A DNA stretch of 64,000 bases from contig CP145423.1 of the NCBI GenBank assembly GCA_036867785.1, forward strand, positions 124,001-188,000. Direction: 5' to 3'. A program made the translations under genes and the position numbers. Shown in pieces: positions 51,768 to 56,799 of the stretch. The DNA is from Plasmodiophora brassicae (taxonomy: Eukaryota). Position 1 is the first letter of the stretch. Each line of letters begins with the position of its first letter. Under the pieces are notes generated by a model. It saw only the letters and a list, made by a program, of their open reading frames with translations. It did no database searches and was not told the DNA's origin.

Positions 51768-51935
51768 AATCGGGACACTGGTGCGACCTCGAGTCCGCAG
51801 AGTGCCTTAGATCAGCAATCATAGGGCGCCTCCCACATATACCGCGCAACACTGCCGTACGGCGTCCGTGGCGCACCAATCATACATTCTGCTATCTGGC
51901 CTTGTCTGGTCTTGTCCGTGTCCTGCGTGTTAATT
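51768..51935 (+). repeat. 5' LTR (AAT...ATT)
   Basis: Identical by eye to 56632-56799. Confidence 0.95.
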
Positions 51936-51948
51936 GGTTTTGGGCCCA
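51936..51948 (+). promoter_or_regulatory. Copia-type primer binding site
   Basis: GGTTTTGGGCCCA directly after the LTR; one mismatch from the Copia half-tRNAiMet PBS GGTTATGGGCCCA. Confidence 0.75.
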
Positions 51949-51960
51949 TCCCAAGCCTTA

Positions 51961-52057
51961 CCCCTGTCCCTGTTCCTGTCCCCGTCCCTGTCCCCGTCCC
52001 TGTCCCTGTTCCTGCCCCAGCCCCAGTTCCCGTACTGTCCCGTGTCCCAGCCCGTGT
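51961..52057. repeat. Degenerate hexamer array (CCTGTC/CCCGTC) in the element leader
   Basis: Pyrimidine-rich tandem hexamers between the PBS and gag. Confidence 0.85.
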
Positions 52058-52139
52058 CGTGATCCAGTTCGCGTTGTGACCGCCCGCGCCCCACGCTCGG
52101 TTTGTACCCGTCCCTGTCCCCCTGCTCCCGCCGCCCGCA

Positions 52140-53086: not shown

Positions 53087-53108
53087 AATCCCGGTCGGTC
53101 GCCACGCC
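53062..53108 (+). promoter_or_regulatory. -1 ribosomal frameshift signal
   Basis: G GGA AAC heptamer, 7-nt spacer, then stem GGCGTGGC (53076-83) pairing with GCCACGCC (53101-08). Confidence 0.8.
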
Positions 53109-56100
53109 TACCAATACACCTGTTCCATCATGCAACCCCGACCACTTCTTTCCCGAGCCAAGTATGATTTCCGCGTCCACCAACCTCGTCGAGCACTTGG
53201 ACCGTGTCCTAAGCATAGACGTGTCCCTTCAACTCGACAATGGCAAGACTGTACAGACGACGGCACTTATCGACTCAGGAGCAACCAACGACTTCATACA
53301 CTCCGACTTCGCCCGCGCTCACAACGTTCCGCTCACCAAGAAACCCGCACCGGTAGATCTGGAGGTAATTGACGGGCGGCGGCTACCGAAGGTGGCGCTG
53401 GAAACGGCCCCTGTCCGCCTCAGTATCGGCAACCACTCCGAATCGATCGTGCTGAACGTAATCGACTCCCCGCGATTCCCGATTATCCTCGGCATGACCT
53501 GGCTCTCAAGGCACAACCCGAGCATTAACTGGACACACCGAACGATGGAGATTACTCGTGTCGCTCAGGACGCCGCGCGCGAACAGAGCGAACCCAAGGA
53601 AGCCATCACAGCCCTAACCTTGCACGACAATGGCGTATTCTCTCAGCAACCAGACCCACCACCTCAAGACCTCTCGCCACCCACACGACACGAACGGCGG
53701 TCGAGGGCCCGTGTTGACAGCGGCAAGGTGCCCTACGCCGTTCCGCTTCCCGGGGATTGGAACCAAGCCCAGAGTCTCAAGCGTTGGCACCACCGCCTCG
53801 GCCACCGTAACCTGCGTGACGTCATCCTGATGGCAAATCATGACCTTACCGAATCCATGGAGATCCTGGCACAGAAGGTTGACAGGTTCTGCGAAGGGTG
53901 CGCTATCGCGAAAGCCAAGGAACGTCCTTTCCCCTCGGAGTCCAAAGAAAAACAGTGGAACGTGCTCGAGAGAATCGACGTCGACGAATGCGGACCGCTT
54001 CCCGTCGCCTCACTCAAAGGGGAGCGATACTTTATCACGTTCACGGAATTTGCAACCAGGATGAAATTTACCTTCCTGTTGCACCACAAGAACCAGGCGC
54101 TGACCAAGTTCAAGGAGCTCAAGACTCGAATTGAGAATCGCCTGGAGAAATCCATTAAGATCCTCTTCGGCGACAACGATGGGGTATTCATCAACAACGA
54201 GTTCAAGGCGTTCTTGCAGGACAACGGGATCGAGTGGAGATCAACGGTGGAGTATTCCTCCAAGCAGAACGGTGTCTCCGAACGGGGACACCTGACGCTC
54301 ATGGACTCCGGTCGCGCAATGCTCGTACACGCAAGGCTCCCCAAGCAGTTCTGGGGACCCGCAATTCTGACTGCCAGCCAGGTCCATAATCTCTGCCCCC
54401 ACCCACGCGATCCCTCGACCACGCCCCATGAAATGCTGTCGCGCTCGAAACCTGATATCCGCTACCTTAGAACGTTCGGGTGCGACGCATATGGCTACGT
54501 CCCGTCCAGCCAGAGAACGAAGCTGGACCCACGCGCCGTGAAAGGCATCTTCATCGGATATGCAGATCACCAGAAAGGGTACGTCCTCTATCACCCTTCG
54601 TCCGGCCTGATCAAGGTGTACCGCAGCGTGACGTTCAGCGAAGACAGCTTCGGCGGCCGCAGTGCGGACGACGCCCTCGCCGATCCCGAGGAACCTGAGT
54701 CTGGATACGACAGCGACTACGTTCCCTCCGGTGACGAACCCGCTGTCGAGGGGGCGCAGTCCGCCGCAGGCCCCAGTGAGGATCCGCGACCTCCCACCGA
54801 ACGAGCCCGGCGTCTCTCCCGCAAGCCAGACCGTTTAGGAGATCCCGTCCACCACGCCTGGATCGCGTCCCTGCAACCTACCAACGACGATCCTATTCAC
54901 CACATGTGGATAGGTTCCACACATCAATGCGACGACGACGATAACGCCGCGCTCAATGCAGATGACCCCGACACTCCAAACACATATGAAGACGCCATGG
55001 CAAGTCCCGAGGCAGAGTTCTGGACTAAGGCGATGGCCGATGAATTGAAGAGCCTGAAACAGCACAAGACATGGGAAGCCGTGGAGCGACTACCCGTCGG
55101 GGCACGCCCCATCGGATGCCGCTGGGTCTACAAGCGCAAGATCACCAAGTCAAGTCAGATCCCGCCGGACACCACCTGGGTTCTCCGCCATGACCCCGAC
55201 GGTGTCACCTCCTACCGGTACAAGGCTCGACTATGCATACTCGGCTACAGACAGCGCCAGGGGATCGACTACACGAACACCTATGCGCCAGTCGTCCGGA
55301 GCGACATCCTCCGTCTAGTACTAGCCCTGTCCGTCCAAGACAAGGAGATCATCGCCGAGCAGATGGATGTGATGACCGCATTCCTCAACGCCCACCTCAC
55401 CGAAGAGATCTACATGGACTCCCCGAAAGGGATGAAGGCCAGAACCCGTTTCGTCAAGCTCCTACGATCGATCTATGGCCTGAAACAGGCCCCAAGAGAA
55501 TGGTTCAAGGTCATCGACGCCTTCCTCGTTAACGAATGCGGGTTCCAACGAGCCAAGTCCGCATCGTGCTTGTACTTCAAACGTGGTCCAACTGGACGGC
55601 TCGTCATTGTTGGGGTCTACGTCGATGATATTCCCATCGTCGGACATCCCGAACTCGTACAGGAAACCAAGTCAGCCCTCTCGAAGAGATTCAAGATGTC
55701 GGACATGGGAGAGCTTCAATCAGTCATTGGCTTCGACGTCGATAGACAAGGTAGATCGGTGTTCCTGTCGCAAGAACGCTACACGAAAACTATCCTCGAC
55801 ACCTACGGCATGGCCGAATCGCGCCCCGTCTCGACACCGGCAGATGCGAACTTGAAGTTATCCACATCACTGTGCCCGCAGAACCAGGCCGATCGCGAAC
55901 TTGCCGCCTTAGAAGGCCAGCGCATCAACTATCGAGCAGCGGTAGGTCACCTAATGTGGCTGCTGCACACCCGGCCAGACATCGCCTATGCGGTGAACGA
56001 GGTCTCCCGATACGTGCAAGACCCAGGGCCAGCGCACTTCGTCGCGCTGAAGCGAGTCTTCAGGTACCTCAACGGCACTCGCAACTACGGCCTCCTGTTC

Positions 56101-56688
56101 GAAGGAGGTGGGGAAACGGCCACACCGCTCCTGGTCGGCTACTCCGATTCTGATTGGGGTGGAGACCTCGACACACGACGATCGACTTCGGGGTGCGTGT
56201 TCCTTCTGAATGGCTGCCCGGTTTCATTTCGCTCTAAGAAGCAGACCACGGTCGCGTTATCGTCGTGCGAGGCGGAGACGGTGGCGTCAACACTCGCGGC
56301 AACAGAAGGCGTCTGGTTGCGCAATGTGCTGGACGAACTAGGTTTTCCACAAGCTCAGCCTACACCTCTACACGTAGACAATCAGGGGGCGATCGCGTTC
56401 GCCAACAGCGAAATCAACCACAGCAAGATGAAACATCTCGCGCTCAAGGACCACTTCGTCAGAGAACTGGTGGCATCCAACCAGATCAAGGTGCACTACG
56501 TCCGCTCGTGCGAGAACCTCGCCGACATCTTCACGAAACCGCTCGGAAAGCACAAGTTCGTAGAATTCCGTGCGGCCCTCAAGTGCGTACCGCATCCCCA
56601 CATGAACTTGGACTCTCAGGTCGAGGGGGGGAATCGGGACACTGGTGCGACCTCGAGTCCGCAGAGTGCCTTAGATCAGCAATCATAG
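53062..56688 (+). CDS. pol: Pol: aspartic protease - integrase - RT - RNase H
   Basis: PR: ALIDSGA...IILGMTWL. INT: WHHRLGH...CEGC, DECGP, DND, QNGVSER. RT: YKARL, QMDVMTAFLN, YGLKQA, YVDD. RH: YSDSDW, ADIFTKPL. Uninterrupted; the stop lies inside the 3' LTR. Confidence 0.97.
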   Translation, partial: GKRLPAWLKSRSVATPTNTPVPSCNPDHFFPEPSMISASTNLVEHLDRVLSIDVSLQLDNGKTVQTTALIDSGATNDFIHSDFARAHNVPLTKKPAPVDLEVIDGRRLPKVALETAPVRLSIGNHSESIVLNVIDSPRFPIILGMTWLSRHNPSINWTHRTMEITRVAQDAAREQSEPKEAITALTLHDNGVFSQQPDPPPQDLSPPTRHERRSRARVDSGKVPYAVPLPGDWNQAQSLKRWHHRLGHRNLRDVILMANHDLTESMEILAQKVDRFCEGCAIAKAKERPFPSESKEKQWNVLERIDVDECGPLPVASLKGERYFITFTEFATRMKFTFLLHHKNQALTKFKELKTRIENRLEKSIKILFGDNDGVFINNEFKAFLQDNGIEWRSTVEYSSKQNGVSERGHLTLMDSGRAMLVHARLPKQFWGPAILTASQVHNLCPHPRDPSTTPHEMLSRSKPDIRYLRTFGCDAYGYVPSSQRTKLDPRAVKGIFIGYADHQKGYVLYHPSSGLIKVYRSVTFSEDSFGGRSADDALADPEEPESGYDSDYVPSGDEPAVEGAQSAAGPSEDPRPPTERARRLSRKPDRLGDPVHHAWIASLQPTNDDPIHHMWIGSTHQCDDDDNAALNADDPDTPNTYEDAMASPEAEFWTKAMADELKSLKQHKTWEAVERLPVGARPIGCRWVYKRKITKSSQIPPDTTWVLRHDPDGVTSYRYKARLCILGYRQRQGIDYTNTYAPVVRSDILRLVLALSVQDKEIIAEQMDVMTAFLNAHLTEEIYMDSPKGMKARTRFVKLLRSIYGLKQAPREWFKVIDAFLVNECGFQRAKSASCLYFKRGPTGRLVIVGVYVDDIPIVGHPELVQETKSALSKRFKMSDMGELQSVIGFDVDRQGRSVFLSQERYTKTILDTYGMAESRPVSTPADANLKLSTSLCPQNQADRELAALEGQRINYRAAVGHLMWLLHTRPDIAYAVNEVSRYVQDPGPAHFVALKRVFRYLNGTRNYGLLFEGGGETATPLLVGYSDSDWGGDLDTRRSTSGCVFLLNGCPVSFRSKKQTTVALSSCEAETVASTLAATEGVWLRNVLDELGFPQAQPTPLHVDNQGAIAFANSEINHSKMKHLALKDHFVRELVASNQIKVHYVRSCENLADIFTKPLGKHKFVEFRAALKCVPHPHMNLDSQVEGGNRDTGATSSPQSALDQQS
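56623..56631 (+). promoter_or_regulatory. Polypurine tract
   Basis: GAGGGGGGG abutting the 3' LTR. Confidence 0.85.
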
Positions 56689-56799
56689 GGCGCCTCCCAC
56701 ATATACCGCGCAACACTGCCGTACGGCGTCCGTGGCGCACCAATCATACATTCTGCTATCTGGCCTTGTCTGGTCTTGTCCGTGTCCTGCGTGTTAATT
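56632..56799 (+). repeat. 3' LTR (AAT...ATT)
   Basis: Identical to the 5' LTR and followed by TSD GCCTC. Confidence 0.95.

Follow-up and report, generated by a model that had tools for sequence, protein, structure and literature searches.

Introduction

The classification of retrotransposons with long terminal repeats (LTRs), and with it the limits of the Pseudoviridae and the Metaviridae, assumes that Gag, protease and polymerase domains share one history within each superfamily. Ordinary Ty1/Copia elements (Pseudoviridae; represented here by proteins P0020, P0021, P0023 and P0039 and by locus L001) carry a Gag of the Retrotran_gag_2 family and a Pol_BBD protease ahead of gag_pre-integrs, usually in one open reading frame (ORF). 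Their domains are ordered protease (PR), integrase (INT), reverse transcriptase (RT) and RNase H (RH), with the Pfam families gag_pre-integrs, rve, SH3_retrovirus and RVT_2, the motifs YVDD and ADIFTK, and a 5-bp target-site duplication (TSD). Ty3/Gypsy chromoviruses of the Tf1/sushi kind (P0152, P0158) and PEG10, a domesticated relative, are built on Retrotrans_gag, DUF4939, Ty3_capsid, a CCHC knuckle and an RVP_2 protease; P0152 and P0158 further follow the RT-RH-INT order, with RVT_1, RT_RNaseH, Integrase_H2C2 and rve plus a chromodomain. Gmr1-like Gypsy elements, which Goodwin and Poulter are said to have described in 2002, reportedly combine Gypsy with Copia features and have the integrase ahead of the RT; both enzymes are said to be phylogenetically Gypsy, the order alone being changed. 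Here we describe an LTR retrotransposon at positions 51768-56799 of a 64,000-nucleotide stretch of the genome of the clubroot parasite Plasmodiophora brassicae (contig CP145423.1, positions 124,001 to 188,000; hereafter the window), in which the first two of these architectures meet in one element. It shares with ordinary Ty1/Copia the domain order, the four Pfam families, both motifs and the 5-bp TSD (its integrase is 37-44% identical to theirs), whereas its Gag and protease are of the chromovirus and not the Copia type and come with a candidate -1 frameshift signal. With P0152 and P0158 it shares the Gag families, the knuckle and the protease (49-50% identity), and with PEG10 the heptamer of the slip site; unlike in the chromoviruses, a Copia INT-RT-RH follows the protease, and there is no chromodomain. 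It also differs from the Gmr1-like elements, in that its INT and RT are phylogenetically Copia and just its Gag and PR are Gypsy.

We put at roughly 85% the probability that the element belongs to a small, established Ty1/Copia clade whose 5' module (gag, -1 signal and PR) was replaced by a module from a chromovirus of the sushi/PEG10 kind. The element family is young and mobile in P. brassicae, and the window insertion is missing from other isolates. It has been previously reported that LTR elements evolve in a modular fashion, that some Gypsy elements have the Copia domain order, and that nested 'complex' elements occur (PMC2774666, PMC5445492, PMC3248453, PMC5718144); the available portions of these papers do not contain the present chimera. 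Likewise, the accessible full-text literature, as far as its available portions extend, held no lineage that joins a Copia INT-RT-RH to a chromovirus gag-PR; subscription journals, Repbase/Dfam and supplements lie outside this scope, and an earlier description is possible. According to the available part of a preprint on the P. brassicae pangenome, the repeats are dominated by Gypsy and Copia elements, and it is in transposable elements that structural variation concentrates (bioRxiv 10.64898/2026.10.14.759018); no chimeric family is mentioned in that part.

Domain composition of the element

Two long frames lie between the LTRs: gag (ATG at 52140, open at 52080-53372) and pol (52969-56688, forward strand), the latter comprising 1239 stop-free codons with the order PR-INT-RT-RNase H according to the ORF list and Pfam. 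An initial annotation of this DNA had described a recently transposed Gypsy-Copia chimera from short motifs, and all of the motifs that it quoted (e.g. PPIYNG, LRQG, YKARL, QMDV, YGLKQA, YVDD and ADIFTK) were found where it had placed them.

As traced by its ORF, Pfam, phmmer and a Protein Data Bank (PDB) match, gag extends on the forward strand from the ATG to the point at which the window copy is one letter short (52140-53038) and encodes a chromovirus-type capsid with a Q-rich N-terminus; a CAA/CAG (Gln-rich) repeat occupies 52188-52281, at the gag start. The motifs PPIYNG, LRQG, PMVID and RRREGLCLYCG are at 52341, 52614, 52920 and 52989, respectively. The Gypsy chromovirus/PEG10 pattern that had been seen in this Gag was borne out by matches to Retrotrans_gag (8e-15), DUF4939 (2.2e-9) and Ty3_capsid (4.1e-9), by a match to the PEG10 capsid domain 7LGA (E 4.6e-11), and by a phmmer search in which 35 of the 270 collected proteins matched. 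Thirty-four of these were Gypsy-type, and the remaining one was P0031, a Copia-order member of the clade discussed below; the best match (6e-54) was P0152, a chromovirus that combines RVT_1, RT_RNaseH and Integrase_H2C2 with a chromodomain. No ordinary Copia protein matched Gag among the 270, and the Copia-type Gag families (Retrotran_gag_2, UBN2, TYA) were not found in the element by Pfam at E<=0.1. The zinc knuckle of Gag (53007-53047, forward strand) is split by a change of register at 53038, with its first part in the gag frame and its last Cys in the next frame. P0031 includes a Gag C-terminus with an intact CCHC knuckle (zf-CCHC) in the same ORF as its Copia part.

The aspartic protease (53149-53565, forward strand; DSG at 53272, ALIDSGAT at 53263, IILGMTWL at 53482) is of the Ty3/Gypsy chromovirus type by Pfam, profile search, trees and blastp, in agreement with the Gypsy pattern first noted in its motifs. 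Pfam placed RVP_2 at pol residues 96-198 (1.5e-7), with Asp_protease_2 and gag-asp_proteas on the same stretch. RVP_2 thus takes the place of the Copia-type protease family Pol_BBD, which Pfam did not find in the element; with Retrotran_gag_2 also not found, the earlier observation that no Copia-type Gag or protease is visible holds. Identity to chromovirus proteases was 44-50% (blastp), and a comparison with PDB sequences gave no match for the protease. A profile search with the protease by itself returned 227 proteins at E<=1e-5. Among the 120 of these that were listed, five had the Copia order (P0003, P0015 and P0031, along with P0151 and P0153, which are nearly full-length), with rve, SH3_retrovirus and RVT_2 present in P0151 and P0153; the other 115 listed included 87 with RVT_1 and, by hand count, none with RVT_2 or gag_pre-integrs.

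In blastp, the similarity shared with chromovirus polyproteins ends at pol residues 195-201, and that shared with ordinary Copia polyproteins begins at residues 254-274. Between the last chromovirus-like and the first Copia-like residue lies a low-complexity linker (53572-53727, forward strand), to which the junction, originally put at about 53550-53760, is now narrowed within that span.

Downstream of the linker, the same 1239-codon ORF continues with Copia domains in Copia order, as had been claimed and as both Pfam and the trees confirm. The Pfam matches along pol are RVP_2 at residues 96-198, gag_pre-integrs at 268-315, rve at 338-430, SH3_retrovirus at 493-561 and RVT_2 at 734-958 (1.3e-58). 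On the forward strand, the integrase (53764-54651; HHCC, DD35E and an SH3-like domain; HHRLGH at 53788, CEGC at 53890) was assigned to the Copia type by Pfam, HMMER and the INT tree, and the RVT_2 reverse transcriptase (55168-55842; YKARL at 55219, QMDV at 55360, YGLKQA at 55474, YVDD at 55618) by Pfam and the RT tree. The RNase H region (55966-56598) was recognized by its motifs (DSDW at 56146, ADIFTK at 56521) and by a match to the RH part of L003, an ordinary Copia locus described below. The PR-INT-RT-RNase H order, the RVT_2 RT and the integrase with gag_pre-integrs and an SH3-like domain are features of Copia membership, and Pfam found none of the features of a chromovirus pol (RVT_1/RT_RNaseH, the RT-RH-INT order, Integrase_H2C2, a C-terminal chromodomain). 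Among the large clusters of the ESM Atlas, those closest to the PR-INT part were ordinary Copia (Pol_BBD and gag_pre-integrs), all below 0.9, which we take as a lead only. Taken together, the separate classification of each domain that the initial annotation had proposed assigned Gag and PR to the Ty3/Gypsy chromoviruses and INT and RT to Ty1/Copia.

Insertion site and integrity of the element

The element is bounded by direct repeats of 169 nt each (51768-51936 and 56632-56800) that are 100% identical, and GCCTC is found on both sides of it (51763-51767 and 56800-56804), so that the identical LTRs and clean TSD reported earlier were recovered. We set the LTR at 168 nt and the TSD at 5 bp because the empty-site joint seen in other isolates has exactly five letters in common; the repeat exceeds the LTR by one base, which is a chance match to the first base of the TSD. 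On the forward strand the left TSD (51763-51767; the joint 51762->56800 shares five letters in sequencing runs X3 and X4) is followed by the 168-nt 5' LTR (51768-51935), a presumed primer-binding site directly 3' of it that was placed from the sequence (51936-51952), and a (CCCTGT)n microsatellite in the untranslated leader (51962-52048). At the other end the polypurine tract GAGGGGGGG (56623-56631) adjoins the 3' LTR (56632-56799, identical to the 5' LTR), which is followed by the right TSD (56800-56804). The LTR termini are AAT...ATT rather than TG...CA. The window held no further copy or solo LTR of the element, no second LTR or element fragment was present inside it, and Rfam gave just two chance-level matches on the element, both under gathering scores.

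Of the 24 public sequencing runs listed, 20 (11 studies) contain 89-94% of the sampled words of 51700-56860. Four runs from four studies (X3, X4, X11 and X12) were compared with the window by contigs, with the (CCCTGT)n stretch skipped as a repeat. In both X3 and X4 a contig links 51762 straight to 56800 with five shared letters and at flank-level depth, which is the empty site. X11 and X12, which may be RNA data, cover the element and not its flanks; they are uninformative on the empty site and were not counted as expression. The empty site in two of the four runs indicates that the insertion is recent and polymorphic, and, since the X3 flank contigs listed are identical to the window, it is absent from a very close relative of the window's genome. 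With the identical LTRs and the 5-bp TSD, the empty-site allele supports the earlier proposal that the chimera moved as a unit. Furthermore, in X3 and X4 word depth within the element exceeds the flank level by a factor of about 4-10, although depth is not a copy number, and loose contig ends at the LTR edges lead into other flanking sequences; the raised depth and the loose ends fit several copies. Some contigs show length differences near the repeats of the leader and gag, with one letter omitted at 52083 and three inserted behind 52138.

The same contigs bear on the possibility that the element is an artefact, that is, a misassembly or a Gypsy remnant into which a Copia fragment was nested, flanked by two unrelated LTRs. 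Nested complex LTR elements with mixed domains are on record in fungi, in the portions of the reports available (PMC3248453, PMC5445492), and give this explanation some precedent. Against it, contigs of all four independent runs bridge the junction interval 53572-53727 (X11, 52688-53780; X3 and X4, 53167-53763; X12, 52253-56752), and the X12 contig, 4501 nt long, differs from the window by only 7 letters and one gap. A single 1239-codon ORF runs across the junction, there is one LTR pair and one TSD with no second LTR or fragment within, and the empty site restores a single GCCTC. The two checks named at the outset, for reads that span the junction and for scars of nested insertion, therefore speak for a genuine element: contigs cross the junction in 4/4 runs without misassembly, and one LTR pair and one continuous ORF are joined by the recurrence of the same junction in seven diverged proteins. 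We regard the chance of an artefact as negligible.

Diverged relatives with the same junction

A HMMER search with pol residues 1-561 against 1.84 billion representative proteins gave 59,183 matches at E<=1e-3. Among the best 150 of these, five also match the protease profile (P0003, P0004, P0015, P0019 and P0031), and all five have the same junction. With P0151 and P0153 they make seven same-junction proteins, in each of which a single blastp segment spans the junction at 37-48% identity. The initial annotation had suggested that the chimera may represent a family; these seven diverged proteins form a clade and take the result beyond that suggestion.

The INT tree was built from the best 80 of 144 proteins with an INT stretch of at least 230 residues; P0015 and P0031, whose INT stretch falls below 230 residues, were excluded, and the second ORF of L001 was not among the 80. 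A clade of eight rows (support 96) contained each of the six same-junction rows, together with P0001 and P0009, which are N-terminally truncated; it is nested in a clade of 15 rows (support 100). Of the seven further members of the 15-row clade, five were scanned (P0020, P0021, P0022, P0023 and P0039), and all five carry Retrotran_gag_2 and Pol_BBD. In the RT tree (best 60 of 63 rows), the window element, P0151, P0153 and the N-truncated P0036 formed a four-row clade (support 99), and the canonical Copia proteins P0023 and P0039 joined them in a six-row clade (support 96). For the protease we built a quick tree of 121 rows, from which matches of fewer than 86 profile positions had been removed, and a careful tree of 56 rows. 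Five of the six same-junction proteases made up a clade nested among those of chromoviruses (SH-aLRT 80 for the quick and 91/74 for the careful tree), and under the approximately unbiased (AU) test a common clade for all six was not rejected (p 0.44). In each of the PR, INT and RT trees the window element is the outlier among the same-junction elements, as a single old exchange followed by joint divergence of the two halves would predict.

These relatives bear on the choice between an old clade and a one-off recent chimera, one that recombination between a Gypsy and a Copia resident of this genome would have produced and that would since have moved once or a few times. The identical LTRs and the polymorphic insertion would suit such a recent origin, as would a feature of the contig graphs: in three of the four runs they branch at 53734-53780, right at the junction, with a change of depth (a rise downstream in X3, 206.7->334.5, and X4, 361.8->459.1; a fall in X11, 84.6->60.6), which could mean resident elements that share one half. 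The first 30 letters of the X11 contig past 53780 do not occur in the window at <=3 mismatches. The branch would be compatible with sibling elements that have only one half in common, with deletion derivatives, or with sub-families that differ by more than 10% upstream. Yet seven proteins have the same junction at about 37-48% blastp identity, a divergence that makes the chimera much older than the window insertion, and the relatives group with the window element in the INT, RT and, P0031 excepted, PR trees, with the window element the outlier throughout. A one-off event is thus very unlikely. The branch and the change of depth at 53734-53780 do hint that exchange of the 5' module may be ongoing among resident P. 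brassicae elements.

The trees also leave room for the exchange to have run in the reverse direction, with a chromovirus backbone (LTRs, leader, gag and PR) capturing a Copia INT-RT-RH block. They are symmetrical, with the 5' half nested in chromoviruses and the 3' half nested within Copia, so that the coding regions by themselves do not tell which parent gave the LTRs, the primer-binding site and the polypurine tract. The noncoding ends speak against a chromovirus backbone: the bases 3' of the 5' LTR do not start with the TGG of a primer site for the 3' end of a tRNA, and the polypurine tract and the 3' LTR adjoin the Copia half. Primer sites of Ty1/Copia elements match initiator tRNA-Met, either at its 3' end or as a half-tRNA, and those bases, called a Copia-type site in the initial annotation, may resemble the half-tRNA site of copia and the hemiviruses. 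We consider the reverse direction unlikely, and prefer a Ty1/Copia element that acquired the 5' module of a chromovirus.

Scans of metagenomes, viral contigs and genome contigs found no DNA locus of another clade member. The metagenome scan, made with a single protein, gave two loci: L001, an ordinary Copia with Pol_BBD and Retrotran_gag_2 whose gag-PR ORF is not matched by the protease profile of the element, and L002, a Gypsy-like gag-PR without Copia INT. Nothing was found in the scan of viral contigs for related loci. The sole match of the genome-contig scan, L003 (1-4715), is an ordinary eukaryotic Copia INT-RT-RH on a contig filed under an uncultured Sideroxydans metagenome-assembled genome, and is probably eukaryotic contamination of a bacterial bin.

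The gag-pol frameshift region

Gag and pol had been described as linked by a PEG10-type GGGAAAC frameshift site, a claim that stands in part. The heptamer is present (53062-53068, forward strand; motif search) as a candidate -1 frameshift site. G_GGA_AAC is the PEG10 slip site and, in the portions of the literature available, counts among the most slippery heptamers (PMC2800197, PMC5009743). GGGAAAC occurs 10 times in the window against 6.4 expected, and the heptamer alone is not significant. In the window copy the claimed link fails on register, as the gag frame reads the heptamer as AGG GAA ACG, and pol lies in the +1 and not the -1 frame of gag. Contigs of all four runs examined, however, have one extra letter behind 53038. 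With this letter gag passes into the third frame (open at 52808-53086), which contributes the last Cys of the CX2CX4HX4C knuckle and brings the heptamer into the G_GGA_AAC register, from which a -1 slip leads into the pol frame. In that register gag is closed by a TGA at 53084-53086 (forward strand), whereas the gag frame of the window copy runs to 53372.

The in-register G_GGA_AAC signal would accordingly be a property of the family, with the window copy one letter short in the zinc knuckle. As assembled, this copy makes no Gag-Pol by a -1 shift, and, its gag and pol being out of register, it is no evidence of autonomous activity. Its shorter length is either an error of the reverse transcription that made the copy or an assembly error. 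A +1 frameshift in the style of Ty1/Ty3 was set aside for the window copy, as the extra letter in 4/4 runs makes a length change the simpler account. A hairpin located by folding 7 nt 3' of the heptamer (53076-53108, forward strand) is a candidate stimulator of frameshifting (-17.6 kcal/mol, z -1.81; 9 of 200 shuffles fold equally well).

Weighing of the evidence and proposed replication

Several observations weigh against the placement of the element in an established Ty1/Copia clade with an exchanged 5' module. At the frameshift site, the hairpin folds only mildly better than its shuffles, the 119 nt after the heptamer folded whole are no better than shuffles (z -0.44), and the window copy has its gag out of register with pol. 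At the junction, the branch seen in three runs means that other arrangements of the two halves may exist. In the trees, support for the protease clade is moderate, P0031 lies outside it on a long branch, and P0001, P0009 and P0036, which fall inside the INT or RT clade, lack the N-terminal part that would show the type of protease. The relatives are metagenome fragments, and a full Gag occurs only in the window element, P0031 having just the Gag C-terminus; in the other clade members we infer a chromovirus-type Gag from their protease. Finally, the proteins of the element are known from sequence alone.

Replication of the element can be pictured as follows. The LTR-to-LTR transcript would be translated into a chromovirus-type Gag, and a fraction of ribosomes would slip -1 at G_GGA_AAC and the hairpin to give Gag-PR-INT-RT-RH, a polyprotein that the chromovirus-type protease would cut. 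A chromovirus-type capsid would enclose the RNA along with integrase and RT/RNase H of the Copia type, enzymes that would then carry out copying of the RNA and its insertion, with a duplication of 5 bp. For particle formation, protease processing and frameshift efficiency we infer as much from the sequence. The exchange itself probably arose by non-homologous template switching between co-packaged Copia and chromovirus RNAs, as the established knowledge of retroelement recombination would suggest.

We propose tentatively that these elements constitute an undescribed clade, old and still mobile, in which a chromovirus capsid packages, and a chromovirus protease processes, the replication enzymes of Copia. 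If this is true, the structural and protease module is exchangeable between the two great superfamilies with function kept. A chromovirus Gag, frameshift signal and protease would then have stayed joined to a Copia INT, RT and RNase H through long divergence while the element went on moving, and capsid and protease need not co-evolve tightly with the enzymes that they package and cut. Such an element would offer a natural system for asking what a capsid must recognize in its own polyprotein and RNA. In practice, automatic classifiers that use a single domain will label copies of this kind inconsistently. The element is, in addition, polymorphic and apparently active in a crop pathogen.

Other features of the window

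Elsewhere in the window, a 939-codon open frame at 16278-19097 (forward strand) has many PPR repeats and a C-terminal DYW deaminase domain, and sits where the window is richest in GC (67-71%). PPR proteins of the DYW type are characteristic of organelle RNA editing in land plants and are rare elsewhere, which makes one in a rhizarian parasite noteworthy. On the reverse strand, a 599-codon open frame at 58466-60265 has a C-terminal chromodomain; because it has no similarity to the Gag or Pol of the element, we regard it as a probable chromatin protein of the host rather than the remnant of a chromovirus. An open frame at 11606-13051, also on the reverse strand, has a PRiA4_ORF3 domain (1.3e-27), and the prenyltransferase-alpha ORF at 28203-29375 shares 89% identity with a protein named Plasmodiophora brassicae, which assigns the window to this species or a close relative. 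The sole tRNA gene in the window is a tRNA-Ser (CGA) at 569-650 on the forward strand.

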